33,293 bases of DNA from a virus (Duplodnaviria > Caudoviricetes): positions 1-33,293 of IMG/VR virus record IMGVR_UViG_3300032237_000969. One strand, given 5' to 3'. Positions 3,118 through 27,785 of this stretch are shown piece after piece. The notes beneath the pieces are model-generated. The model was not told the origin of the DNA. It made no database searches and worked only from the letters and a program-made list of their open reading frames with translations. A program made the position numbers and the translations under genes. Numbering within the stretch: the first letter of the stretch is position 1; the number at the start of each line of letters is the position of its first letter.

Positions 3118-5616
3118 TTATCGTAATGCGAGTATTAGTGGTGTAACTTCTGCTTGTATTGCTCTACTAAAATCTCTTCCTCTAATTGTAGAAGTTGTTT
3201 GGTCAATTTGAATACCTTTTCCGATATCAAAATTTCCCTTTTGATCTGTACTAGTAAATGGAATTTGGGCTCCATCACGAGCAACGATCTCGTTAGCTTT
3301 AATAGGAACTCCACCAAATTGTGGTGTTGCTGTATTTATATTAGTACCAGCACCAATATATTCAAAAGAATGACTGCTAGTAAGGATACGACTAATTCTT
3401 TTTAATTCAACTACATCATTTTTGAATAATTCATATGGAACAAATTCATTGAAAGTTGTTGTCGTAATTCCAGTTGGAGATGTGACAGGAGTTGATTCGG
3501 AAATCGTAAAATATATTGGTTCCATATTGACAACATAATTTGTTGTAGGTTGAGGATCTCCATTAATGACAACTCTAATATCTTGTGTGGACAGATAATT
3601 TCTCCCACTACTAAGTACATCTATAGAAATAATCTTTCCAGTATTATTATCTATATTTGGACTTACTTCTGCCACAATTCCCTGCGGGCCCTTTGGTAAA
3701 AATGTGCCGTCAATATCTTGAATAATAATTGATGGTGGGGAACTAGCACTGTAATTGGAAGCACTATTTTTTACAGTAATAGATCCCAATCTATTCATAG
3801 GAGCAGAAATTACTCCAGACCCTACAGCATATTGCCTAGATTCTGGATAATTATTTAAATTAATCTTAAACCAAAGTGCCTGCCCATCATAAGGTCTTCT
3901 TGGAGTAGTGGTATTAATCAAGAATATTGAAGTTAAACCAACTTTATCTGAGTTTGCTGGAGTATCTGCAATAACGCTACCTGTAAATTCAGTTCTACCT
4001 AAACCAACGGAAACTAATCCATAATTACCAAATGATGAGTTTGAGTTTGTAAGATCACATTGTCCACCAGTATCAGTATAAATGGCAATATCGCAATTAA
4101 TTGTAAAAATAGAAACTAATTGAGCATATCCATTATTTGTAATAGAAACTCCAATACCTGCCTCATTATATTGTGTAAATGAGTCGCAAACCATACACTT
4201 AAGGTTTGCACCAATTTCTGTAGCAGTTGCATGATCTCCATTAATCTTCATACCTATACTTAAAGGCATAAAGTTGGTACAGTTTCTTACATATGGAGAT
4301 CTCCATCTTCCACTAGAACCTTCTGTGGCTGGTCCAGGTGCAGTATATCCACTAACTGCAGGATAAGATTTTCCTGCTACTATATCGGTGGTTGTTGGTG
4401 GGAATGCAAGAGCACCTCCACCGGGATTTGATTGTCCAGTATCACATGAAAAGTTAAGATTCTCAATTAAACATCCCCTTCTTACGTGAAATATATCTTT
4501 ACCTAAATTTTGAGGAACAATAGTTACGAGACGTAAATCTTGACCGGATACTGCAACATCTGTACGAAGACCAATTGGATTATTCTCATAATAGACTCCA
4601 GAACGAACAAAAATTGTATCTCCCGATTCTGCAATTGCTGCTGCTGCTCCAATAGTTCTTTTTGCATCACCCTCCAAATATCCACTATTTGTATCGTTAC
4701 CATCTATTGTAACCCAAATAGCATTTTGAGTTTGAACTCCCGGAGGTCTCCAAGAAACACCAGTACCTACAGATGATAAACGATAATCAAACTTTCCAAA
4801 TGCAGTACTATTATTAATATCAATTAGAGAAGAATCTAATTTTAATGTTCCAATAAGTTCTGTATTTTTACCAACGTTTAGATTCTCCTCAATACCAACA
4901 CCACCATTAGAAACTACTAAAGCACCAGTATCTTTTGATGTTGAAGATGTTGTACCATTAATTGTAGCATTATTACCAACATTTAAGTTTTCTTCAATAC
5001 CAACACCACCATTAGAAACTACTAAAGCACCAGTATCTTTTGATGTTGAAGATGTTGTACCATTAATTGTAGCATTATTACCAACATTTAAGTTTTCTTC
5101 AATTCCAACACCACCTGTAGTAACTACTAAAGCACCAGTATCTTTTGATGTTGAAGATGTTGTACCATTAATTGTAGCATTATTGCCAACATTTAAGTTT
5201 TCTTCAATTCCAACACCACCTGTAGTAACTACTAAAGCACCAGTATCTTTTGATGTTGATGAAGTTGAATTAGTAAACGTAACAACACCATCAACATTTA
5301 ATTTTGAATCAAAATCAACATCTCCAGTAGCATGAACAGTTCCCGTAATATCTAATGTTGTTGATGGATTGTTATTTTGAATACCAACCTTTGTCATCCT
5401 ATAGATATTACTAGATCCGGCGCCGGTATAACCCCAAAAATCTTGTGTACGGATATCAGCAATCCAATTTGGATTACTAGGATTAACTATAGGTATTAAC
5501 GTATCTGTTCCAACACCAAGACTATTTGCCTGAACAAAATTTAAAGCAGCAAATGCTTGAGCTAAGTCATTTGTTGGGATAAATATGCCTTGATCTTGAA
5601 CATAAAATCTTGTCAT
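3118..5616 (-). CDS. Tail fibre/spike-like structural protein with a tandem-repeat shaft and a probable parallel beta-helix domain
   Basis: 832 aa with four 35-aa repeats. These are followed by 'IWVTIDGNDTNSG...AKRTIGAAAAIAESGDTIFVRSGVYYENNPI', a typical N-cap of pectin-lyase-like beta-helices. Late promoter TATAAATA upstream. Confidence 0.75.
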   Translation of the reverse strand: MTRFYVQDQGIFIPTNDLAQAFAALNFVQANSLGVGTDTLIPIVNPSNPNWIADIRTQDFWGYTGAGSSNIYRMTKVGIQNNNPSTTLDITGTVHATGDVDFDSKLNVDGVVTFTNSTSSTSKDTGALVVTTGGVGIEENLNVGNNATINGTTSSTSKDTGALVVTTGGVGIEENLNVGNNATINGTTSSTSKDTGALVVSNGGVGIEENLNVGNNATINGTTSSTSKDTGALVVSNGGVGIEENLNVGKNTELIGTLKLDSSLIDINNSTAFGKFDYRLSSVGTGVSWRPPGVQTQNAIWVTIDGNDTNSGYLEGDAKRTIGAAAAIAESGDTIFVRSGVYYENNPIGLRTDVAVSGQDLRLVTIVPQNLGKDIFHVRRGCLIENLNFSCDTGQSNPGGGALAFPPTTTDIVAGKSYPAVSGYTAPGPATEGSSGRWRSPYVRNCTNFMPLSIGMKINGDHATATEIGANLKCMVCDSFTQYNEAGIGVSITNNGYAQLVSIFTINCDIAIYTDTGGQCDLTNSNSSFGNYGLVSVGLGRTEFTGSVIADTPANSDKVGLTSIFLINTTTPRRPYDGQALWFKINLNNYPESRQYAVGSGVISAPMNRLGSITVKNSASNYSASSPPSIIIQDIDGTFLPKGPQGIVAEVSPNIDNNTGKIISIDVLSSGRNYLSTQDIRVVINGDPQPTTNYVVNMEPIYFTISESTPVTSPTGITTTTFNEFVPYELFKNDVVELKRISRILTSSHSFEYIGAGTNINTATPQFGGVPIKANEIVARDGAQIPFTSTDQKGNFDIGKGIQIDQTTSTIRGRDFSRAIQAEVTPLILALR
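4868..5260. repeat. Tandem 105-bp (35-aa) repeats, about 4 copies
   Basis: AACTACTAAAGCACCAGTATCTTTTGATGTTGA starts at 4912, 5017, 5122 and 5227. Protein unit: TSSTSKDTGALVV(TT/SN)GGVGIEENLNVGNNATINGT. Confidence 0.95.
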
Positions 5617-15683: not shown

Positions 15684-15784
15684 GACTGCTCTTAAACTGG
15701 TGGTTATAAGTATTTATATAAGAAAAGGAGCAATGCTCCTTTTCTTCCCGAAAAGAACCACCAGTTCAGGCATTAATATTTATA
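15684..15784 (-). promoter_or_regulatory. Endonuclease leader cassette #1: late promoter, antisense RNA, terminator, late promoter, target UTR
   Basis: TATAAATA at 15777-84; AACTGGTGGTT at 15756-66; 12-bp hairpin AAGAAAAGGAGC-ATT-GCTCCTTTTCTT at 15720-46; TATAAATA at 15711-18; AACCACCAGTT at 15695-705; then AAGAGCAGTC-ATG. Confidence 0.75.
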
Positions 15785-15812
15785 ATATCCTATAAAGTTC
15801 AGGTGCTTTTAT

Positions 15813-16655
15813 TTATAGAGTTCTAAACCAATTAGAAGTATTTGGATTTGTGCTATTAGAATTTAATTTTGCATTTGGGCTAGGGTTGATAGATCCGCCG
15901 ATTCCTCTAGGTCTTGGATCATCCAATCTTCCCGTACCAAGATTCAGGTTTCTCCAGATTAATTCTTCTCTTCCAGTTGCAAGTCTATTTGTATTATTTG
16001 ATGCAGTAACATTTTGAGGTATTAAATTGTTATCTCTCAAGTAAGAAACATCAATACTTCTAATTGATCCACAAACATATCTTTCATAACTAAATGATGC
16101 CGTCACAGTTAATATTTGCGACTCATTATATGCAATAGTTGGTGAATACATTGCAATTGGAAATAATCCATAAAAATTATATTCAATTTCATTTCTATAA
16201 TCTCTATCAAATTTTAAAACTTTTGTTGTATCTGATTTATAATCTTTTGGATATTTCATTCTGAAAAAATATCCCTGTGCATTGGGTCTAACTCCAGAAC
16301 CACTGGCAATAAATTCTATCCAGTGTTCTAAAAATTTTATCATTTTATATTCTTTATCGACATAAAATGTTAAATCAGTTGAAGTAAATATTCTAGTGTG
16401 TGCCATCTTCTCACTCACTCCCGTAACATCACCAACAATATCTGATGTTCCCAAAGAACTACTAGGTAATGTTGCAGAAGAACACAATAATCCAGCATTT
16501 TCAGCAACAAATCTCCAATCAACACCTCTCAAACTTAGATGATCTTGAAGAAGTTTTGGCAATGATCCAAAAGAAACTTGATAATGACTAGTTTGTGCAA
16601 GATTACCAAAAATTGGTTTAATTTCTGATATTCTGCGAGGACGTGCAGTGGACAC
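15813..16655 (-). CDS. Tail tube initiator / tube-like baseplate protein (gp54/gp19 family); likely GTG start at 16655
   Basis: Tube-protein-like motifs 'LLCSSATLP', 'TDLTFYVD...FLEHW', 'YNFYGLFP', 'LTVTASFSYE'. The track's 16721 start overlaps gp4 and lies upstream of the promoter, so GTG at 16655 is preferred. Confidence 0.65.
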   Translation of the reverse strand: MSTARPRRISEIKPIFGNLAQTSHYQVSFGSLPKLLQDHLSLRGVDWRFVAENAGLLCSSATLPSSSLGTSDIVGDVTGVSEKMAHTRIFTSTDLTFYVDKEYKMIKFLEHWIEFIASGSGVRPNAQGYFFRMKYPKDYKSDTTKVLKFDRDYRNEIEYNFYGLFPIAMYSPTIAYNESQILTVTASFSYERYVCGSIRSIDVSYLRDNNLIPQNVTASNNTNRLATGREELIWRNLNLGTGRLDDPRPRGIGGSINPSPNAKLNSNSTNPNTSNWFRTL

Positions 16656-16656
16656 T

Positions 16657-16690
16657 CTAAATACTACTAAGATCTTATATATGTATTTAG
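16657..16690. promoter_or_regulatory. Overlapping face-to-face late promoters (CTAAATA on both strands) in a near-palindrome
   Basis: CTAAATAC-TAC-TAAGATCTTA-TATAT-GTATTTAG lies between the two divergent start codons. Confidence 0.7.
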
Positions 16691-17128
16691 ATGTCATATA
16701 AAGGAAAATATCAACCAACAAATCCTAAAAAATATCGAGGAGATTTTAATAATATAACTTATAGATCTTTATGGGAACGTAAATTCATGAAATATTGTGA
16801 TACAAATGAAAATATTCTAGAATGGTCCTCAGAAGAAATATTTTTACCTTACCGATCACCTATTGACAATAAGATACACAAATATTTTCCAGATTTTTAT
16901 ATCAAAGTAAGAGAAAGCAATGGAGAAATTAAAAAATGTATAATTGAAATAAAACCAAAAAAGCAGACAATTGAACCAATACCACAAAAGAAAAAGACAA
17001 AAGGTTATATCTATGAGGTTTATGAGTATGCAAGAAATCGGGCGAAATGGAAAGCTGCAGAAGAATACTGTAAGGATCGTCAATGGGAATTTAAGGTGTT
17101 CACGGAAGAAAATTTAGGGATTAGGTAA
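16691..17128 (+). CDS. gp4: Head completion protein gp4 (TnsA-like nuclease fold)
   Basis: 'YKGKYQPTNPKKYRGD...YRSLWERKFMKYCD...WSSEE...YFPDF...IEIKP...N.AKW.AA'. Confidence 0.9.
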   Translation: MSYKGKYQPTNPKKYRGDFNNITYRSLWERKFMKYCDTNENILEWSSEEIFLPYRSPIDNKIHKYFPDFYIKVRESNGEIKKCIIEIKPKKQTIEPIPQKKKTKGYIYEVYEYARNRAKWKAAEEYCKDRQWEFKVFTEENLGIR

Positions 17129-17691
17129 TGGCACTCACAGGATACGAAAAACCAATCGAGCAATATAGTAAAAATGAATTAGTTGAAATTGCAAAAAAAT
17201 ATACCATATATTATCAGACTGATTCTGGAAAAGGTTCTATAGGCAATTACGGTAGATTAACAAAAGAGAAATTAATCTCAATTATAAAATCTGATAAAGA
17301 TTTTCAGAAAGCTGCTCCACCTTCTAGGAAATTAAGCAGAGTTGAAATGATGATGCAAAGAATATCGCAAGCGACTGATAGTCCAGAAAAGATTATGAAA
17401 ATCATTCAAGAGATTTTTGATGATACAGATCCATATCCAAGACCTGGAAATATATACACTTTTGTATATAAAGCAACCACTCCAGGAATTCTTTATGATA
17501 AACATCCATTATTGATGGTTGAATCAGTCAATCTTTCTGGATTTAAAGGATTCAATGTTCATTGGCCAGATCACAGAAATTATCTTCGGGAAAATGCTAT
17601 TGGTGTTTTTCATAGAGTTAGAAAAGGTGAAGAATTTGATTATCTTCATGATGTTCCCTACAGAAAAATATTATCAACAAGGTCTAAATAG
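17128..17691 (+). CDS. gp2: gp2-like DNA end-protector protein
   Basis: C-terminal 'PGNIYTFVYKATT...YDKHPLLM...FKGFNVHW' motif; position between gp4 and gp48. Confidence 0.6.
   Translation: MALTGYEKPIEQYSKNELVEIAKKYTIYYQTDSGKGSIGNYGRLTKEKLISIIKSDKDFQKAAPPSRKLSRVEMMMQRISQATDSPEKIMKIIQEIFDDTDPYPRPGNIYTFVYKATTPGILYDKHPLLMVESVNLSGFKGFNVHWPDHRNYLRENAIGVFHRVRKGEEFDYLHDVPYRKILSTRSK
17684..17690 (+). promoter_or_regulatory. Late promoter CTAAATA upstream of gp48
   Basis: Motif ends 16 nt before the ATG at 17706. Confidence 0.6.
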
Positions 17692-17705
17692 TTATAAAAA
17701 TATAA

Positions 17706-18590
17706 ATGGCAACCTTAGGATCTTATAGATATCCACAAAAAAGATTAGATGCATCAGATGATTATCTGAAAATTCTTATTGTTGATTATATTCCTCCAGG
17801 ATTGGGTGCAAGCACAGCAACAGATATTATCCAAAAAACTGCCACTAGGGCATTAGCAGAAAGTGGAAAGTTAACAAATCCTTTATATCAGATTCTTCTT
17901 CCCATGCCACAGGGAATTAGTGATACTAATATGGTTAGTTGGGGTGATGATACATTAAATCCTCTAGCAGCTAGTGGTGTTCAAGCTGCAGAATCCGCCA
18001 TGACAGGAGATGTTGGAGGAGCAGTAAGTAACCTTTTGTCACAATTCAAAAATGTTGCTACTAATGGAAATGGGCAAGATGCAGTCACTAATTTCTTCGC
18101 TGCAATGGCAGTAAATAACTTTGGTGCAAATGTGAGTGGTGAAAGTCTTCTTACAAGAGCATCTGGTCAAGTTCTTAATCCAAATATGGAACTTCTCTTT
18201 AAAGGAGTTCAGTTAAGATCATTTAATTTTTCCTTTAATATGGCTCCAAGAGACGAAAAAGAATCGAAAGATATTAAAGATATTATAAGAGCGTTTAAAA
18301 AATCAATGGCTGCAAAAACTTCAATTGGTCCTGGTGCTGGATTGTTTATTAGTTCTCCAAGTATATTTCAACTTGAATATCGAAGCGGAAATAAAAAACA
18401 TCCATTTCTAAATTCATTCAAACCGTGCGCCTTATTAAACATGGGAGTTGATTATACAGGATCTGGTGTTTATGCAACGTATGAAGATGCAACACCAGTT
18501 CATATGAAACTCACACTCTCATTTCAAGAATTGAATCCAATTTACTTTGAAGATTATGATGATTCCACAGATATTGGAGTAGGGTACTAA
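17706..18590 (+). CDS. gp48: Baseplate tail-tube cap gp48
   Basis: 'ILLPMPQGISD...W', 'NPNMELLFKGVQLRSFNFSF.MAPR', 'FKPCAL..MGVDY...YATYEDATPV...LSFQELNPI'. Confidence 0.85.
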   Translation: MATLGSYRYPQKRLDASDDYLKILIVDYIPPGLGASTATDIIQKTATRALAESGKLTNPLYQILLPMPQGISDTNMVSWGDDTLNPLAASGVQAAESAMTGDVGGAVSNLLSQFKNVATNGNGQDAVTNFFAAMAVNNFGANVSGESLLTRASGQVLNPNMELLFKGVQLRSFNFSFNMAPRDEKESKDIKDIIRAFKKSMAAKTSIGPGAGLFISSPSIFQLEYRSGNKKHPFLNSFKPCALLNMGVDYTGSGVYATYEDATPVHMKLTLSFQELNPIYFEDYDDSTDIGVGY

Positions 18591-18591
18591 A

Positions 18592-19245
18592 ATGTCATAT
18601 TTTAGGGAATTGCCAGATCTGGAGTATCAATCACCTTTTGAAAATAAGGTTTCTTCGGATGCATATATACGTGCAAAGAATCTATTTCGTAGAGTTAAAC
18701 TTCGTGATGATTTGCAGAATGTTTTTACTCTCTTCAACAAGTATCAAATTCCAGATGGTGCTAGACCAGATACTGTAGCAGAAGAACTTTATGGTAGAGC
18801 AGATTTAGATTGGGTTGTTATTTTAACAGCAGGAATTATTAACATAAGAAATGAATGGCCTTTATCTGATAGAGATATTTACGATTATGCTGAAGAAATT
18901 TATGGTACTCAATTAAATAATATACATCATTACGAAACTATAGAGATTAAAGATTCACAAGGTCGTTTGATTCTTCCAGCGGGAAAAGTTGTAGATTATA
19001 ATTTTACAATTCAAGATCCAAATATTCCAATTCAAAATATTACTCCTGCACCAGTTACTGGAATTAGTAATTATGAATATGAGGTTATCAAAAATAATAA
19101 AAAAAGAACAATTTATATCTTAAAAAAATCATATTTACAACAATATCTGAATGATATGAGAAAAATTATGTATTATGATAAATCTTCTCAGTATGTTGAT
19201 AAAACTTTAATTCGTACAGAGAATACTAGAGTTACAATGCCATAA
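18592..19245 (+). CDS. gp53: Baseplate wedge subunit gp53
   Basis: 'MSYFRELPDLEY...KNLFRR...GARPDTVAEELYG...WVVIL...EWPLS...IHHYET...SNYEYE...N.KKR.I'. Confidence 0.9.
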   Translation: MSYFRELPDLEYQSPFENKVSSDAYIRAKNLFRRVKLRDDLQNVFTLFNKYQIPDGARPDTVAEELYGRADLDWVVILTAGIINIRNEWPLSDRDIYDYAEEIYGTQLNNIHHYETIEIKDSQGRLILPAGKVVDYNFTIQDPNIPIQNITPAPVTGISNYEYEVIKNNKKRTIYILKKSYLQQYLNDMRKIMYYDKSSQYVDKTLIRTENTRVTMP

Positions 19246-19268
19246 AAAAAGAGGAGATTTCTCTCCTC
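19244..19268 (-). terminator. Intrinsic terminator between convergent gp53 and gp32
   Basis: GAGGAGA-N4-TCTCCTC hairpin with a T7 tail on the minus strand. Confidence 0.8.
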
Positions 19269-19285
19269 CAATCTTATTACTCAGA

Positions 19286-20206
19286 TCACTGAGCTAATTT
19301 TGCGAAATACGACATCGTGTCGTCATTTTCATCATCATCATCATAAGAAGATGTAGATCTAGTAGCAGTCAGATTGTTAAGTTCAGAACGAAGATTTTCA
19401 TCAAGGTCACGAACTGGACCGCGAGTATTTTCTTCATCTTCAACTTCCAAATCTTGGCGACGAGCACCTTTTGCTCCAAGAACGGAATCAAGACGAGTCT
19501 TCAGTTCATCATAGGATTTAAATTGATCTGGAGAAACAAACTCAAGAAGAGAATATTGCTTTTTCCAGATTCCTTCAATCACATCATCATCAGCATCAAG
19601 AACCGAAACAGGTGCAAACTCTGAAGAATCATAATTACGATAACCAGCAACATTCTTTGCTTTCAGTTTAAAATTAGCACCTGTCCAAAAATCAAATGGA
19701 TCAATTGCTTGCTCATCCTCAAATTCTGGTTGCATTGCTGCAGTCAGTTTATCAAAGATTTTTTTACCATACTTATACAGAAAGACCTTACCTTCATTTT
19801 CAGGATTTGCAGGATCTTTAACAACATAAATGTTGCTCACATAAGTCAGTTTACGCTTCTGCTTACGTGCTACTTCTTTATTGGAATCAATTCCAGAATT
19901 CCAAAGTTCAGAATTGTGTTCACAGACCGGACATTTTTGATTCATGGTTGTAAGGCACTGATCAATTAACCAACCACCAGGACCTTGAAATGCATGACTA
20001 TAGACTTTAACAAATGGGAGATCTTCTCCATCAGGGGCAGGAAGGAAACGAATAATTGCATAACCATTCTGTGCCTTATCACATTCAAGTTTCCACAAAC
20101 GTTCATCAGCAGAACTATTCGTATTATTCATTTTTTCGACTTCTTTCACCAATTTTGCGGTGAGAGAACCAAGTTTGGATTGTTTTTTAAGATCGGCAAA
20201 AGCCAT
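19286..20206 (-). CDS. gp32: Single-stranded DNA-binding protein gp32
   Basis: 'DERLWK...NGYAIIRFLPAP...HAFQGPGGW...C...CPVCE...GANFKLK...YRNYDSSEF' and the acidic tail ending 'YFAKLAQ'. Confidence 0.95.
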   Translation of the reverse strand: MAFADLKKQSKLGSLTAKLVKEVEKMNNTNSSADERLWKLECDKAQNGYAIIRFLPAPDGEDLPFVKVYSHAFQGPGGWLIDQCLTTMNQKCPVCEHNSELWNSGIDSNKEVARKQKRKLTYVSNIYVVKDPANPENEGKVFLYKYGKKIFDKLTAAMQPEFEDEQAIDPFDFWTGANFKLKAKNVAGYRNYDSSEFAPVSVLDADDDVIEGIWKKQYSLLEFVSPDQFKSYDELKTRLDSVLGAKGARRQDLEVEDEENTRGPVRDLDENLRSELNNLTATRSTSSYDDDDENDDTMSYFAKLAQ

Positions 20207-20249
20207 TTGGATACCTCGGATAATTTTGGATTTGTTTGATTACTTGGAT

Positions 20250-20278
20250 ATTATAACAAGATTTTTTTTATTTGTCAA
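20250..20278 (-). promoter_or_regulatory. Consensus sigma70-type (early) promoter for gp32
   Basis: TTGACA-N17-TATAAT, an exact match. Confidence 0.85.
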
Positions 20279-20600
20279 CAAACTGCCTGAGCGATTCAAT
20301 CGTTTTATTCATGCTATTGAAAAGTAAATTCATATCTGTATCTGGAGGAAACCCCATAAGTGCCACAGATTTACGCAGATTCTCTTTCATCTCAATCGCT
20401 TGTGGATCGTCAGAAAGAGAGAGTCTTGTGTACATAATTTGTTGTTTTTCAAGCAATAAAGTTATTTTTTCAATATGTTCTATTTTATCTTCACGGGACA
20501 TAGATCCAAATGATAAAATACTTCCATAAATGAACTTTTGAAGATCATTAATCTCTTTTAATTCATTCTGAATCATTTCTGAGTCAAAAAATTTACTCAT
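20268..20600 (-). CDS. Conserved cyanophage hypothetical protein (DUF1825-like)
   Basis: 'FFDSEMIQNEL...LLEKQQIMYTRLSLSDDPQA' motif; position between gp59 and gp32. Confidence 0.7.
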   Translation of the reverse strand: MSKFFDSEMIQNELKEINDLQKFIYGSILSFGSMSREDKIEHIEKITLLLEKQQIMYTRLSLSDDPQAIEMKENLRKSVALMGFPPDTDMNLLFNSMNKTIESLRQFVDK

Positions 20601-21189
20601 TTACAATTTCCCTTAAAAGTTTTTTGTAATTGAACACATTAATATTTAGAAATGGTTTGTACTTCTTAATTTTTAAACTTACGGTTTCCCATACTGGATC
20701 TGATAATTTCGTATCAAATACATTCCCAAACTGAAAGATAATATCATAAATTGTCAAAGTTTCAATTGATATTTTTCCTCCCAGGAATTTTTTTAATACT
20801 GGTGGATGACCTTTCAAGCAACTGAAAGCATCTTCTAATTTGATTTCCGAGAGTAATTCTTCTGACTGTTCTTTGAACAAGTAAGTTAAACTCTGCTGTC
20901 GTTTCATCCACTCTGTGTATGTTCTTTCTCCAGAACTTATAATTTCTCCAATCCATATTTGATTTACACTGCTAGATTCTATGAAGTTTGCAACTAAGAA
21001 ATCAACAATCTCTTCGTCTTTATATTTGCGACTTGTTTTCTCGAACCAGTATTTATCGGATCGGGCATTAAACGATGTTGCAGAGGCACGAACTTTTTTG
21101 TTGTATTTGAAGTAATCGTATTTTACATTACTAAAATGTGATTTTAGGGCAAGATATTCAATATAAACTTGATAGGGAGTCACCTTCAA
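20593..21189 (-). CDS. gp59: Helicase loader gp59 (TTG start)
   Basis: 'YLALKSHF...YDYFKYN.KVRAS..SF..RSDKYWFEK...ISIETL...IKKYKPFL'. Confidence 0.85.
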   Translation of the reverse strand: MKVTPYQVYIEYLALKSHFSNVKYDYFKYNKKVRASATSFNARSDKYWFEKTSRKYKDEEIVDFLVANFIESSSVNQIWIGEIISSGERTYTEWMKRQQSLTYLFKEQSEELLSEIKLEDAFSCLKGHPPVLKKFLGGKISIETLTIYDIIFQFGNVFDTKLSDPVWETVSLKIKKYKPFLNINVFNYKKLLREIVNE

Positions 21190-21212
21190 TTTCTTACATT
21201 ATAACTCTATGT

Positions 21213-21241
21213 ATTATAGCACGAACTCTGGGTGGAGTCAA
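21213..21241 (-). promoter_or_regulatory. Sigma70-type promoter at the cassette 3' end, driving gp59
   Basis: TTGACT-N17-TATAAT with an extended -10 TG; the -35 box overlaps the endonuclease stop codon. Confidence 0.75.
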
Positions 21242-21900
21242 GACTCCGGATCCAGAGGCGCATTTTCAAGGTTTTTCATTAGATCACGTTGTCTTTGATA
21301 TTCTATTAATCTTTCTCTATTTTTTTGATAATACTGTTTATGATATTCTCTTAATTTTTCTTTATTTTTTATTTGATATTGTTTTTGAACTTCTTTTATT
21401 GTTTCTTTATTTTTTTCTCTATATTTTTTATTAACTTCTTTTTTTGTTTTACTATTTCTACCTTTTTCATTTAATTTTTCTTTATTATTATCTCTATATT
21501 TTTTCTTAATTTCCTTTACTCTTTCTTTATTTTCCTCCACCCATTTATCATAAGTTTCTTTTCCCTTTTTGGATTGTTGATATTTTTTTACAGATTCAAT
21601 TCTCAATTTTTCTTTTTCTTCTTTACTTCTTATTAAACTTGCTCTATTTTTTCCACCAATGCTTCTGTTAATCAGAATACCACCCTCACTTTTTCTTTTA
21701 TATACGGATATTAACTCCTCTTCAAATAAGTAACTTTCTTCTTCATTATCAAAATATTTAACTATTACTATTCTATCCTTTGGTGGAGGAGAAATCCATC
21801 TTTTTCCCCAAGTATGCTTCACATATGCCCGGTATTCTTTACCTTTACCGACATAATAAGGAGTTCGGTCTTCTCTTACCCAGAGATAAACATAGTACAT
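21238..21900 (-). CDS. Free-standing GIY-YIG-like homing endonuclease #2
   Basis: 'MYYVYLWVREDRTPYYVGKGK..RAY...EEESYLFEEELI..Y.RK..GGILIN...GG' followed by a K/E-rich repeated C-terminus. Confidence 0.75.
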   Translation of the reverse strand: MYYVYLWVREDRTPYYVGKGKEYRAYVKHTWGKRWISPPPKDRIVIVKYFDNEEESYLFEEELISVYKRKSEGGILINRSIGGKNRASLIRSKEEKEKLRIESVKKYQQSKKGKETYDKWVEENKERVKEIKKKYRDNNKEKLNEKGRNSKTKKEVNKKYREKNKETIKEVQKQYQIKNKEKLREYHKQYYQKNRERLIEYQRQRDLMKNLENAPLDPES

Positions 21901-22004
21901 TTCTGCTCTTAAGTTGGGTGCATTACTATTTATGCAAGAAAAGAGGCATTACTGCCCCTAATCTACCTGTGAAGATTGCACCCAACTCAGGCACCATTAT
22001 TTAG
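21901..22004 (-). promoter_or_regulatory. Endonuclease leader cassette #2
   Basis: CTAAATA at 21998-22004; GTGCCTG-AGTTGGGTGCA at 21977-94; hairpin AGGGGCA-GTAA-TGCCTCT plus TTTCTT; CATAAATA at 21927-34; TGCACCCAACT at 21912-22; then AAGAGCAGAA-ATG. Confidence 0.75.
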
Positions 22005-22010
22005 TCACCT

Positions 22011-22316
22011 TCATATTGGCAACCGTGCCTTTGAAGTTTTCTTCATGAAGTTCAGATTGATTGCATCATATTTTAATCTTTCTTTCAATGGTTTTGAAAT
22101 TAGTTTAGTAACTGATTCTATTTCAATGCTATTTGTTTCACAATAATGAACAATCGCATCAATATAGTTACATTTTTCTTCGGTGACAATTTTTTCTACT
22201 TCCAGTGCGAATTTGGAAGGAGTTAAAAATTTACTTTCTATTGCTTGCTCTAGTTCTTTATTTGGTTCCATATATTCTATTTTAAATTCAAGAAGATTTT
22301 CTAGTGCATTACTCAT
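22011..22316 (-). CDS. gp33: Late-transcription co-activator gp33
   Basis: 'KFALEVEKIV...YIDAIVHYCE.N.IE.ESV.KLISKPLKERLKYDA..LNFMKKTSKARLP'. The true start may be the internal MEPNK. Confidence 0.85.
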   Translation of the reverse strand: MSNALENLLEFKIEYMEPNKELEQAIESKFLTPSKFALEVEKIVTEEKCNYIDAIVHYCETNSIEIESVTKLISKPLKERLKYDAINLNFMKKTSKARLPI

Positions 22317-22338
22317 AATTTTTTACAATATAATATTT

Positions 22339-22367
22339 ATTATAACTCAAAATATCATATTAGTCAA
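22339..22367 (-). promoter_or_regulatory. Sigma70-type promoter driving gp33
   Basis: TTGACT-N17-TATAAT; the -35 box overlaps the final stop codon of the pseudogene. Confidence 0.75.
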
Positions 22368-22781
22368 TAAAAATGCAAGATTTTTTAATCATATGTCGTG
22401 ATATACCCAGTTTTTCAATAGCATCTTTTATACAATCAAAAGGTTTTCCATCAAAAATAATTTTTTATGCTCTTCTGTATGTTTTTTTCCATATGTTGAA
22501 AATCCAGTAGAAGTCTGATATGATCTATTAGCAAAGTGCTTATTTTGAACCACCTTATAATATTCTTGTAATATAATCTCATCAATATATGCTTCTTCTC
22601 TTGTAGAATAATCACTTTTCAATATTATTTTTTGTGTAGGTTTAAAGTTTTTATCTTTAGAAGACCCAAAATATTTTATATCTTCTTCTGGAAGGCAATA
22701 GCATTTTCTACTGCCAAAATATCCTTTGCCCCATTCTTCATAATAATAGTAAGTATAATAATATTCTTTTCAAGTTTTCAT
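22360..22781 (-). pseudogene. Inactivated GIY-YIG-like homing endonuclease #3, paralog of 23538-24167
   Basis: ATG AAA ACT TGA gives a stop at codon 4 (22770-72). The frame continues KEYYYTYYYYEEWGKGYFGSRKCYCLPEEDIKYFGS...ANRSYQTSTG...KKHTEEHKK. A frameshift then separates an HTH-like tail IIFDGKPFDCIKDAIEKLGISRHMIKKSCIFID*. Confidence 0.85.
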
Positions 22782-22875
22782 ATATTTACACTATCAGGGT
22801 CGCATTAGTATTTATAAGGGGAACATTACTGCTCCCCACCTGAAAAGTGCGACCCAGACAGGCACCTTTATTTAG
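22782..22875 (-). promoter_or_regulatory. Endonuclease leader cassette #3
   Basis: CTAAATA at 22869-75; GTGCCTGTCT-GGGTCGCA at 22848-65; hairpin GGGGAGCA-GTAA-TGTTCCCC at 22818-37; TATAAATA at 22809-16; TGCGACCC at 22797-804. Confidence 0.7.
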
Positions 22876-23548
22876 ACATAAGTTCCAAACGGTCATTAAC
22901 AAACTTTTTAATATATTCGACCACAAGTTTCATATATTTTTTCAAATCTCTTTCCTCATAAAGAACACATTCTCCAGTTTCACACGCCATAATAATTACT
23001 AGTTTTTTAATAGGAGTCCCAGTCATTTCATAATATGCCATACCATAAAACATTGCTTGAACAAAATAATGATCAATCCAGTCTCGTGGTTTTGGTTTCT
23101 TTGAAGTCTTAAAGTCGATTACAGCAAGTTCTTGGTTGTGTTCTCCAATACAATCCGTCGTTCCTGCTACACCAAGTTGCTTACTATACAAAGCACCTTC
23201 TAAACAATGGATATTATTAATATGATTAAGTTCAAATTTAGAAATATTAAATAGAAACTCTGAAAGAGGTTGAACTGTAGGAAGATCAAGATTTTTTAGA
23301 TAATATTCAGTAAGAGTATGCATATCCGTACCACGACTAGTTGCTGCTTTTGTGATACGGTCTGCTTCAACATCTCCAACTTTCTTACGCCATTTTACAA
23401 AAATTTCTTTATTAAAATGACTAGTAACAGAAGTGATTGAAACTAGTTTGAGTAGTTCTTCATCATCAGGTACGAAGTAATACCTTGTACCGTCAATTGT
23501 AGTCCTTTCAAGTTTAGGTAATTTAATATCAATATGATTAAAAGTCAT
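22868..23548 (-). CDS. PD-(D/E)xK (Cas4/RecB-like) exonuclease; likely start MTFNH at 23548
   Basis: 'SITSV...W...VG..EA...A..RGT.MH...E', 'LEGALYS..LGVAGT.DCI...AVIDFKTS.KPK...YFVQ...Y'; position next to phoH. Confidence 0.85.
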   Translation of the reverse strand: MTFNHIDIKLPKLERTTIDGTRYYFVPDDEELLKLVSITSVTSHFNKEIFVKWRKKVGDVEADRITKAATSRGTDMHTLTEYYLKNLDLPTVQPLSEFLFNISKFELNHINNIHCLEGALYSKQLGVAGTTDCIGEHNQELAVIDFKTSKKPKPRDWIDHYFVQAMFYGMAYYEMTGTPIKKLVIIMACETGECVLYEERDLKKYMKLVVEYIKKFVNDRLELMSK

Positions 23549-24167
23549 TAATTTTGGGGGTTGTCCATCCGTTATGTTGTTTTCTTTTTCCAGATATAAC
23601 ATTAAAAATGTGCCTTTTGTTTAAATTGTTGTCTTTGCAAAATTGAGATACATTGCTTCCACTTACTATTTTACCATATGGATCTAATAATGTAAACTCT
23701 TTGGACTTTTTTTGTGCCCTTTTTAGTTTGTGTTCTTCTGTTTGTTTTCTTCCTTTATTTTTTTGCCTTATTTTTTCCTTTATCTCATCTGAAACACATT
23801 TACCTTTATTCCAAGCAATTCTACCTTTATGAGATTCACTTAATTTTTTTCGAGTTTCATCAGATGGAAATAATCCAAGAGTAGTCCATCCTGTAGAAGT
23901 TTGATATGCTCTATTAGCAAAATGTAGATTTTCTACTACTTTATAATGCTCTTGTAAAATAATCTCATCAATATATGCTTCTTCCCTTGTAGCATAGTCA
24001 TCTTTGAGTATTATTTTTTGAGATGGTTTGAATGTTTTATCTTTGAATGATCCAAAATACTTTATATCTTCTTCTGGAAGACATTTACAACTTCTACTAC
24101 CAAAATATCCTCTACCATATTCTTCATAAGAATAATAGACATAGTGATACTTTCTTAAAGTTTCCAT
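23538..24167 (-). CDS. Free-standing GIY-YIG-like homing endonuclease #4 with NUMOD3-like motifs; likely start METLRK at 24167
   Basis: 'YHYVYYSYEEYGRGYFGSR...YFGS...REEAYIDEIILQ...FAN', 'SDETRKKLSESHKGRIAWNKG' and a C-terminal HTH-like '...RKQHNGW'. Confidence 0.8.
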   Translation of the reverse strand: METLRKYHYVYYSYEEYGRGYFGSRSCKCLPEEDIKYFGSFKDKTFKPSQKIILKDDYATREEAYIDEIILQEHYKVVENLHFANRAYQTSTGWTTLGLFPSDETRKKLSESHKGRIAWNKGKCVSDEIKEKIRQKNKGRKQTEEHKLKRAQKKSKEFTLLDPYGKIVSGSNVSQFCKDNNLNKRHIFNVISGKRKQHNGWTTPKINDF

Positions 24168-24274
24168 AGTTCTGCTTCTAATTTGTGTTCGCAATACTAT
24201 TTATACAAGAAAAGGTGCCAAAGCACCCTTTCCACTCTCATGGATGCGAACACATTAGAGCACTATTATTTATA
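24168..24274 (-). promoter_or_regulatory. Endonuclease leader cassette #4
   Basis: TATAAATA at 24267-74; GTGCTCTAA-TGTGTTCGCA at 24245-63; hairpin AAGGGTGC-TTTG-GCACCTTT plus TCTT; TATAAATA at 24198-205; TGCGAACACA at 24184-93; then AATTAGAAGCAGAACT-ATG. Confidence 0.75.
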
Positions 24275-26483: not shown

Positions 26484-27785
26484 TTATCCAGCAGGTTTAA
26501 ATTTAACTCCAAGTGCTTTGTTACGAGCAGTGTCAGATTGTCTTGCCGTAGCAAGTTTCTTAGCAGCATTAGCAGCATCAGATTTCTTATATGCACCAGC
26601 AAATAAAGATCTTCCAACTCTTTCTAATGGATTAGAAGAAGTTTTTGCAAGAGACTGAGCACTTGGTCCTGCTTTATAAACTGCTTTACCACCTTTGAAT
26701 GCAAGATTTCCGGCAACAGATTGTCCACCTCTTTGAACTACACCAGTCTTAGCAAGTTGAACAGTTGATCTTTGCTTACCAACACCAGTTGACATAAATG
26801 CTGGGCCACCTGGTTTTTTCTGACTAAAACTAGTTTGACCACCAATACCTTTAACTGATGTTCCTGCCTGACGTTGACGATTTGCAGTTGCCATTGCTTT
26901 TCTTTCTTTTGCATTTGCACCAGCAACAGTATCAAATGCCTTCTCAGCAGCAGCACCACCCGCTAAAGCACCGGCAGTTCCAAGTACGGCACTACCAACA
27001 CCACCACCACCAATTGCACCGGCAGTACCACCAAGAACACCACCAGCAGCAACTGTAGCACCTTTTGCCAATGATCTTGCCCATCCAGAACCTTTTGATC
27101 TTTCATCTGCAGTAGATAATGCAGTATCAAGTGCTGCAGATGCTGGACCTGCAAGTTTTCCAATCTTTGCAAATTTTCCTGCAGTTTTTCCTCCAGGAAC
27201 ATTCATATTAGTACGAATTTTCTGTGGATTTGATTTTGATCCTACTGGTGCAGATGGGGTAGATGTAGGTCTTATTGCTAATGGACCACCTTTAGTGGTG
27301 GATGAACTAGATCCAACATTCCTATAAGGTTTTGGTTCTCTGGTATTAGATGGTGAACCACCAGAAATCGAAGGAGAAGTACTAGAAGTAGCATTAACTG
27401 TTGATGGTTTAAATGCTGATGGAGTTGCAGGAGTTGGTGCTGCAGGACCACTTGATGGTCTTCCACCAGGAATAACTTTACCTTGAACACGAGTACGACG
27501 ACCAGATGGTAAAGAAGGTCGTGTAAGTGGACTTGGTGGAGTTGCAGTACCTCTTACACTGGATCCAGGAACATTAGTAGTTGTTCCTTGTGGTCTAAAT
27601 TGTGTTGAAGGATTGGCAGCAGCACCTGTTGGAACTCTCGCTGCTCTTCTTGCTGCTGCGTCTGCTTCTTTAGCATCTTGTGCTGCTTTTACATCTTCAT
27701 AAGAAGGAGCGTTAGATCTTGCTTTTTTTGCTGGTCTTTCTTCACTAAAATATGATTCATTTAAAAACTGATTAAAAGACTTCAT
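26484..27785 (-). CDS. Low-complexity Ala/Gly/Ser/Pro-rich basic protein, candidate capsid-internal protein
   Basis: N-terminus MKSFNQFLNE resembles the T4 capsid-targeting sequence. It has its own late promoter TATAAATA (27809-16) and a downstream terminator. Confidence 0.65.
   Translation of the reverse strand: MKSFNQFLNESYFSEERPAKKARSNAPSYEDVKAAQDAKEADAAARRAARVPTGAAANPSTQFRPQGTTTNVPGSSVRGTATPPSPLTRPSLPSGRRTRVQGKVIPGGRPSSGPAAPTPATPSAFKPSTVNATSSTSPSISGGSPSNTREPKPYRNVGSSSSTTKGGPLAIRPTSTPSAPVGSKSNPQKIRTNMNVPGGKTAGKFAKIGKLAGPASAALDTALSTADERSKGSGWARSLAKGATVAAGGVLGGTAGAIGGGGVGSAVLGTAGALAGGAAAEKAFDTVAGANAKERKAMATANRQRQAGTSVKGIGGQTSFSQKKPGGPAFMSTGVGKQRSTVQLAKTGVVQRGGQSVAGNLAFKGGKAVYKAGPSAQSLAKTSSNPLERVGRSLFAGAYKKSDAANAAKKLATARQSDTARNKALGVKFKPAG

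Follow-up and report, generated by a model that had tools for sequence, protein, structure and literature searches.

Background

Translational masks with a nested late promoter have been described for T-even I-TevI/II/III, segB and Aeh1 mobE (PMC2988022) and for metagenomic cases (PMC2677866), and in reviews the control of homing endonucleases is ascribed to cis hairpins, terminators and autorepression (PMC2988022); these and the other papers cited here were available in part, and statements on them refer to those parts. Here, a conserved unit of about 105 bases (the module, or head) is described, which precedes four nuclease cassettes in a 33,293-nucleotide, i.e. 33-kb, piece of a T4-like cyanomyophage (IMG/VR record IMGVR_UViG_3300032237_000969, positions 1 to 33,293; hereafter the window), and whose front half bears complementarity to the beginning of its own nuclease's message. 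The module resembles the T-even masks in gene class, in the late box between complementary arms and in the predicted silencing of read-through RNA. In the parts of the mask papers available, no promoter, stem-loop or terminator belonging to the 5′ arm itself is described, and the hairpins in the supplement of PMC2677866 are plain arm-box-arm structures, whereas the arm of the module has the look of a gene in its own right and is swapped among families of nucleases. As in a T4 mask, an upstream arm is complementary to the leader, and the late box is placed so that the late transcript lacks this arm. A T4 mask has both arms on one continuous early or middle transcript and no separate arm unit, whereas a terminator-like hairpin and a late box of its own accompany the arm in all 50 module hits of a scan blind to the upstream promoter, P1.

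The loop of IS10 RNA-OUT nucleates on the 5′ tail of RNA-IN (PMC4737173). This geometry, a hairpin loop complementary to the 5′-terminal bases of the target, is shared by the RNA predicted for the module. RNA-OUT belongs to an insertion sequence and is encoded opposite its target strand, overlapping the target, so that complementarity is automatic, whereas the antisense segment of the module lies upstream on the same strand, ahead of nuclease genes, must co-evolve with the leader, and has no Rfam match. In the C4 RNA of P1 and P7, loop-exposed complementary sequences act on the ribosome-binding region, and sequence differences define immunity groups (PMC12197685). The module likewise appears, as predicted here from sequence, to encode a phage antisense RNA with a loop-exposed seed. 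C4 is a processed, multi-loop RNA that controls an antirepressor in temperate phages, whereas the module would give a primary late transcript in a lytic T4-like phage and has no Rfam match to C4. A non-coding RNA linked to a homing endonuclease gene, CfrI of cyanophage S-PM2, is about 225 nt long and antisense to psbA and the nuclease gene (PMC2984593); in a comparison by this description only, the RNAs of the modules differ in having a predicted 47–72 nt, in lying on the sense strand and in their non-psbA sites.

An earlier reading of the window (the original prediction) had likened the RNA to type I antitoxins, with which it has in common a small cognate RNA whose predicted effect is translational repression of a protein that may be harmful. 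The targets of type I antitoxins are small toxin peptides, whereas the target here is a nuclease of 200–300 amino acids (aa), and the proposed mechanism is closer to that of IS10 RNA-OUT or the C4 RNA of P1/P7. By the features compared above, the module works like a T4 late-promoter mask joined with RNA-OUT- or C4-type antisense, and is a member of none of these systems.

A description of the module was not found in the literature searched, most subscription papers lying outside that search. The available parts of the papers on phages S-CREM2 and S-SRM01 do not mention it, and the word "endonuclease" is absent from the main text of PMC5737381. In the supplement of PMC10690425, candidate RNAs without annotation (DNAVirus_1557, 227, 5667) are given for freshwater viruses, upstream of GIY-YIG or NUMOD3 genes, and by these supplement rows, the part compared, pieces of the module may already have been catalogued there, uninterpreted. 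As of 2010, according to the part of PMC3014915 available, T4 had yielded no functionally characterised small regulatory RNA that acts in trans.

Architecture of the four modules

The window carries gp32-like, gp59, gp33, exonuclease, PhoH, tail and baseplate genes, and its four nuclease cassettes are located after the tail-tube gene, gp33, the exonuclease gene and phoH (loci 1 to 4, Table 1). The original prediction had placed a module before each of them, and its coordinates, minus-strand orientation, order of elements and complementary pairs were all confirmed: late promoter P1, the bases RTGCY, segment A (the seed), a terminator-like hairpin, late promoter P2, and a leader that begins with A′, the reverse complement of A. 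The pair differs at each locus as predicted: apart from itself, the only perfect match of each A within the window is its own A′. Net binding at the window loci was −14.0 to −17.1 kcal/mol for cognate pairs versus −0.1 to −6.5 kcal/mol for the 12 non-cognate pairs. A strict module pattern occurred twice in the window and not at all in 100 shuffles; loci 2 and 3 were missed due to the CATAAATA box and a short U run, respectively. The closest cultured match to a window module was in Synechococcus phage S-SRM01 (93% over 113 nt).

Several details of the prediction were revised. The segment after A is not a plain short linker, as the RTGCY bases pair with it into a stem of 5–6 bp (stem 1) whose loop contains the seed; at locus 4 the two arms of this stem carry compensated changes. 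At P1, the full TATAAATA box was found only at loci 1 and 4, with CTAAATA at loci 2 and 3. The terminator-like hairpin is present at every locus, that of locus 3 being followed by only two T. For the discrete RNA of about 55–65 nt that had been proposed, predicted lengths are 53, 58, 47 and 56 nt at loci 1 to 4.

The reading favoured here, and considered probable, is that a late antisense small RNA (sRNA) from P1 represses the cognate nuclease mRNA in trans, with read-through RNA being masked in cis.

Table 1. Features of the four module loci, positions in the window; RNAs and leaders, with their ends, are predicted.
Locus	Feature	Position	Strand	Remarks
1	Partial upstream duplicate, late box and short seedless stem	15789..15817	-	Weak model match 15792-15815, E 2.1
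1	P1 late-promoter box TATAAATA	15777..15784	-	
1	Antisense RNA, 53 nt	15719..15771	-	Stem-loop with seed A 15756-15766; terminator-like hairpin 15720-15746
1	P2 late-promoter box TATAAATA	15711..15718	-	
1	Leader, 22 nt	15684..15705	-	A′ 15695-15705, then AAGAGCAG
1	GIY-YIG-like free-standing nuclease, 280 aa	14841..15683	-	PHROG 314 homing endonuclease, E 1.7e-10
2	P1 box ACTAAATA	21998..22005	-	Just past gp33 stop
2	Antisense RNA, 58 nt	21935..21992	-	Seed A 21977-21987; terminator-like hairpin 21942-21959
2	P2 box CATAAATA	21927..21934	-	
2	Leader, 21 nt	21901..21921	-	A′ 21912-21922, AAGAGCAG
2	GIY-YIG-like nuclease, 220 aa	21238..21900	-	Family alignment and fold matches
2	sigma70-type promoter, cassette 3′ end before gp59	21213..21241	-	11 of 12 match
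3	P1 box TCTAAATA	22869..22876	-	Overlaps exonuclease gene end
3	Antisense RNA, 47 nt	22817..22863	-	Seed A 22848-22855; hairpin 22818-22837, two-T tail
3	P2 box TATAAATA	22809..22816	-	
3	Leader	22782..22803	-	A′ 22797-22804; purine motif degraded versus intact relatives
3	Nuclease pseudogene, locus-4 family	22360..22781	-	Stop at codon 4, frameshift further on
4	P1 box TATAAATA	24267..24274	-	After phoH
4	Antisense RNA, 56 nt	24206..24261	-	Compensated stem; seed A 24245-24254; terminator-like hairpin 24208-24233
4	P2 box TATAAATA	24198..24205	-	
4	Leader, 25 nt	24168..24192	-	A′ 24184-24193, GAAGCAG
4	GIY-YIG-like nuclease with NUMOD3, 209 aa	23538..24167	-	Pfam NUMOD3, E 2.4e-9; PHROG 314, E 4.7e-15

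Distribution and conservation of complementarity

The viral collection was searched with a pattern made up solely of a pair of late boxes, the beginning of the stem and a run of T, which is blind to complementarity and to the downstream gene. In total, 126 viral loci were returned (about 560 estimated in the collection), and the 112 unique matches comprised 108 modules and four chance matches. A duplex of ≤ −16 kcal/mol was present in 107 of 111 viral matches versus one of 117 cellular-genome matches under identical scoring, the sole cellular case sitting on a 1.8-kb metagenome-assembled contig; the A/A′ complementarity, which the original prediction had proposed to check in homologues, is maintained in these viral matches. 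Among 55 predicted sRNA types the cognate leader gave −20.9 ± 2.1 kcal/mol versus −8.6 ± 3.4 kcal/mol for the others, and ranked first in 43 and among the top four in all 55. From 185 candidates, 20 were removed for want of a terminator or seed match, including three second-type scaffolds (described below) and Sf-CH5, and the 165 unique modules of the resulting clean set have 69 different 9-nt leaders. Modules are carried by the cultured phages S-SRM01 (five modules), B23 (two), S-CREM2, S-B68 (on Synechococcus WH 7803) and MA01. The head was absent in the distant nuclease relatives L031, L038-L042, L044-L047 (by eye), ACG-2014f, RN05-S, S-N03, XG4 and RSP15.

Rfam gave no gathering match in the window, and no module match at E ≤ 1 in 12 plus 12 loci. 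A MAFFT alignment of 57 heads was not structure-true, the model built from it kept five terminator pairs, and it was left unused for covariation; this model finds the four training modules and weak matches at the gp32 terminator and at the upstream duplicate of locus 1. The latter is likely the remnant of an older module, and similar remnants of a seedless mini-module upstream of the head in relatives L048-L050 and L194 suggest nested replacement of heads. The terminator after gp32 (19244-19277) resembles terminators inside modules at the gp32 site of relatives, and could be either what is left of a module or the origin of its terminator part.

The upstream promoter

In a scan that was independent of P1 in selection (127 loci, 120 unique, 118 scorable), TAAATA stood at the P1 position in 50 of 50 strong-duplex hits, many of them on contigs shared with the pattern search, and in none of 67 non-module hits. 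Outside both counts is L212, a module-like locus with an imperfect pair and no P1, which is an apparent chimera of the front half of one seed type and the leader of another. At protein-selected loci TAAATA was found at P1 in 37 of 41, and the remaining four had CTATATA with one mismatch.

The T4 late box spans −13 to −6 with little conservation at position −13, and for Aeh1 a putative late promoter reads CTAAATA (PMC1524935), while NATAAATA has been reported for S-PM2 (PMC2984593); PMC7892883 added nothing on spacing. With the box at −13 to −6, the first transcribed base (+1) of P1 is the first stem base and that of P2 the first base of A′, both being purines after T. The bases following P1 mirror those following P2, with T at −1 in 65/68 and a purine at +1 in 67/68.

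The cassettes are optional at fixed sites: among 80 gp33 junctions only two carry a module, and in two others a box precedes another gene. As the other 76 are boxless, P1, loop, terminator and P2 arrive together with the cassette. Empty alleles of the locus-3 site (L334, L351, L373) are without the P1 box, and in empty alleles of the gp33 site the gp33 stop codon overlaps or abuts the next start. A resident host-gene promoter as the origin of P1 was therefore ruled out at the gp33 and exonuclease sites, and P1 as a mere stop codon holds for 52 of 152 cases and fails for 100. The P1 of S-CREM2, also considered as a sigma70 site, is now read as a late box with one mismatch, like the full box in MA01. 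In L343 and L366, a late box right after gp33 is followed by an open reading frame (ORF) that starts MKTFNQF or MKTFIQF and is unrelated to the nucleases.

Stem-loop and pairing boundary

Stem 1 encloses the seed in 67/68 types and covaries, the own arm giving perfect Watson-Crick pairing in 24 of 68 versus 5.6 expected with another arm. It is incompatible with the A:A′ helix and forms only when A′ is absent. The RNA bases opposite mRNA positions +1 to +4, the 5′-terminal bases of the target, have a predicted unpaired probability of 0.84–0.99. The pairing register was chosen on +1 to +9, and only other positions are informative. At +10 and +11 pairing is well above chance (59 vs 30.1 and 55 vs 31.9), and the excess stops at P2 +1, with −1 at chance (60 vs 58.8) and −2 to −5 at or below it. 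Within the duplex, G-U exceeds A-C by 35 to 3 over +1 to +11, and by 21 to 1 at +10 and +11, outside the register-setting positions, which points to a sense-strand RNA.

This tolerance of G-U, and not of A-C, argues against a DNA-level role of A and A′ as a cruciform or recombination end that aids cassette movement. The two segments do form an inverted repeat at the 5′ boundary of the cassette, and nested replacement, as suggested by the seedless remnant at locus 1, would suit such a role. Both repeat ends, however, coincide with predicted transcription starts, and no matching repeat was seen by eye at the 3′ ends of the cassettes, so that this explanation is regarded as very improbable.

The predicted duplex has 15–19 bp, is often bulged, and ends 2–10 nt before the ATG in 67/68 types (range 2–13 nt); it covers part of the purine motif just 5′ of the start codon and stops short of the ATG in every type scored. 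The last point would also suit an effect in trans on RNA fate, i.e. RNase III cleavage, premature termination of the P2 transcript or shielding of its 5′ end, which shares the anatomical evidence for the antisense RNA and has a precedent in the IS10 duplex, an RNase III target (PMC4737173). A duplex of this small length with frequent bulges speaks against it, as does the consistent reach into the purine motif, which fits ribosome occlusion, and such an effect appears improbable as the main outcome.

Seed exchange and independence of the pairs

Leaders are exchanged between nucleases: of 34 types present in several copies, 18 have their 9-nt leader in front of more than one protein cluster (16 once two truncated fragments are removed), and one is found on four clusters. 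At the gp33 site eleven modules carry five leaders, and at the gp32 site twelve modules carry six. Recurrence of the seed in the DNA flanking the cassette, considered close to it, was at the control level (2/165 vs 1/165). A guide or cofactor RNA for the nuclease, serving targeting or RNA-guided binding to its own promoter, would have the constant scaffold and variable loop beside a nuclease gene that are the general layout of guide systems. The seeds, however, track neither nuclease nor insertion site, shared leaders preceding clusters that span GIY-YIG, HNH, EndoVII-like and NUMOD3-only ORFs, which argues against a guide RNA. The guide hypothesis was rejected for nearby flanks and is highly unlikely overall, in agreement with the original prediction, where it was the lesser alternative.

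In 17 contigs with several modules (45 modules), none of 90 ordered cross pairs reached −10 kcal/mol versus 3.1 expected by permutation (P=0.09), and sharing of the first five bases was at chance (4 vs 4.5). The antisense pairs within one genome are thus predicted to be mutually independent, in line with the orthogonal repressors originally proposed, but not significantly more so than by chance. A more speculative extension, judged unlikely, is that the at least 69 lock-and-key pairs also act between genomes: the sRNA would silence the same-seed nuclease of a co-infecting phage, giving immunity groups, and heads left after nuclease decay (locus 3, orphan second-type scaffolds) would persist as a defence against rival nucleases.

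Proposed mechanism

In the favoured reading, the late RNA polymerase would start at P1 to make an sRNA of 47–60 nt, consisting of stem-loop and terminator, and at P2 to make the nuclease mRNA. Bases free at the 5′ end of this mRNA would pair with the exposed loop, the 3′ arm of the stem would be displaced, and the 15–19 bp duplex would zip up to about 2–10 nt before the start codon, within the ribosome footprint, thereby blocking translation initiation. In transcripts that pass the terminator this helix would form in cis, as in T4, and the loop would also be present on mRNAs from upstream that end there. Repressor and target, being made from one template at the same stage, would constitute an incoherent feed-forward loop with capped or pulsed nuclease output, and this output would likely be buffered against genome copy number. 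The comparative data fit the original proposal that a P1-to-terminator RNA pairs with the 5′ terminus of the P2 mRNA from the same locus, in that P1 lies at start-site spacing, a covarying stem-loop presents the seed, and pairing is bounded at P2 +1; the RNA, its termination and the repression are predictions.

By predicted folds, the T4 cis mechanism is available to read-through RNA, in which the leader is masked (mean unpaired probability 0.13–0.19 vs 0.54–0.89 in P2 RNA). The module could on this ground be a cis mask only, with A:A′ forming in read-through transcripts as in T4 I-TevI, segB and Aeh1 mobE, the terminator serving as insulation and the P1 RNA being a by-product or keeping A folded. 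That mechanism is established in this gene class (PMC2988022), P1 is non-consensus, and most orientable modules follow a same-strand gene (79 same-strand, 2 opposite, 74 ambiguous, 10 short). A cis mask leaves unexplained, however, why P1 is almost always present with exact start-site spacing, why stem 1, a competitor of the cis helix, covaries, and why just the bases opposite +1 to +4 are exposed in the loop; nor does it explain the intact modules L079 and L561, two anecdotes in which the neighbouring upstream gene is on the opposite strand. Moreover, the published cis hairpins, in the sequences compared from the parts available, are without terminator or second promoter. Masking in cis as the sole function is accordingly rated unlikely.

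Promoter-like sites were found at the 3′ ends of 43 of 107 cassettes versus one of 107 inside the ORF, which may fit a terminator that truly blocks read-through; the sigma70-type promoter before gp59 likely replaces the read-through blocked by the locus-2 cassette. Cassette 3′ ends (e.g. L061, L062, L082, L091, L114, L317, L319) recurrently contain GACACTT ... AACTGG, after which come a hairpin and a TATAAT-like box, and this element downstream of many nucleases looks like a shared early-promoter element.

Several points weigh against repression by a trans-acting sRNA. The RNA, its start site, its 3′ end and the repression are predicted from sequence alone. P1 is the weaker match, with TA preceding TAAATA in 25 of 160 P1 versus 162 of 165 P2 boxes, so that the repressor may be outnumbered; the TAA of P1 is the stop codon of the upstream gene in 52/152; and L212 keeps the structure without P1. 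The U tail is nearly missing in the locus-3 type, including its intact relatives. The leader motif differs from a canonical Shine-Dalgarno sequence, and ribosome occlusion follows from distance only. The boundary at +1 could partly come from promoter constraints in a cis helix, the control for the 3′ promoters is coding DNA whereas the cassette ends are intergenic, and selection for orthogonality was not significant over the 90 ordered cross pairs.

Nuclease cargo

A homing endonuclease gene, predicted behind all four modules, is intact at loci 1, 2 and 4, and is a pseudogene at locus 3. As predicted, the nucleases fall into three dissimilar sequence groups; despite this, GIY-YIG structures were the best fold matches for both models built (loci 2 and 4). 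The nucleases of loci 1, 3 and 4 match PHROG 314, with the open fragment of locus 3 at E 1e-5, and that of locus 2 matches an unnamed PHROG. The locus 1 nuclease aligns with the locus-4 family with invariant Y-x-Y / Y-x-G, and has no Pfam match; Pfam GIY-YIG matches no window protein. In the locus 2 family Y3, Y5, Y16, G18, R24, E60 and N78 are invariant. The model of its N-terminal domain matched 9u75, UvrC and I-TevI with respective Z scores of 6.5, 6.1 and 6.0, and the locus 4 N-terminal domain model had the I-TevI catalytic domain as its best fold match (Z 6.4, rmsd 2.6 over 75 residues). By these models the cargo has a GIY-YIG fold with catalytic Tyr, Arg, Glu and Asn, at modest Z scores (6.0–6.5) and with the residues seen in the locus-2 family. 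Foldseek gave no match to the nuclease models at E ≤ 0.001, though GIY-YIG domains ranked first, and sequence searches of PDB with the nucleases gave weak matches only. Relatives of locus 3 in L333 and L342 have an intact 217-aa nuclease at the same site with the same seed type.

Across the modules, the cargo ranges from GIY-YIG, HNH and EndoVII-like nucleases to short NUMOD3-only ORFs. In L121, L136, L177 and L183, heads precede short ORFs without a recognised catalytic domain (two NUMOD3-only by Pfam), which are possibly decayed nucleases or DNA-binding regulators. In GenBank, GIY-YIG-like nucleases of this kind are labelled "translation initiation factor 2" or "UvrC" (MW015081.1, MN695335.1, PV340852.1, OR473000.1), which hides the family.

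A second scaffold

Another scaffold, framed by GGGCAGCA and TGYGTAAGTCC, was found at 124 loci (80 unique matches), with L343, L372, L384, L328 (Sf-CH5) and L413-L536 as carriers. Its inner segment is complementary to the downstream leader in 54 of 54 copies with a late box ≤45 nt downstream. The copies with a late box are mostly ahead of the same nuclease families, and 26 of 80 unique copies stand in other contexts without one. There is no separate terminator hairpin, the upstream box is present in some copies only, and no Rfam match was obtained; a processing site or a merged terminator is possible. From this scaffold it seems that the same logic has appeared on another RNA. Sf-CH5, at one time taken as a classical hairpin, was revised as a carrier of this scaffold.

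Second-type scaffolds have been kept after nuclease loss in L423, L353, L354 and L449, three without late box and leader, and one as a whole head directly before the next core gene. Weak Rfam CRISPR-DR21-like matches (E 0.007–0.07, below gathering) in L343:1604-1640, L372:3312-3348 and L384:2045-2081 share one homologous position upstream of gp33, and are probably due to chance.

Other features of the window

An 832-aa ORF at 3118-5616 contains about four near-identical 36-residue repeats and is tail-fibre-like. Behind a late box, 26484-27785 encodes a 433-aa low-complexity ORF rich in Ala, Gly, Ser and Pro and without Pfam match.

Significance

The comparisons indicate that the module is a regulatory head, real, widespread and mobile, and they give strong signs of a discrete, as yet predicted, antisense RNA. 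The module is carried by the cultured phages S-SRM01, B23, S-B68, MA01 and S-CREM2, and is therefore directly testable. If the reading is true, it would supply, by the dozen, compact natural counterparts of the antisense pairs engineered from IS10, would show a route from a cis hairpin to a separate antisense gene, and would add a trans RNA layer to the biology of lytic T4-like phages.

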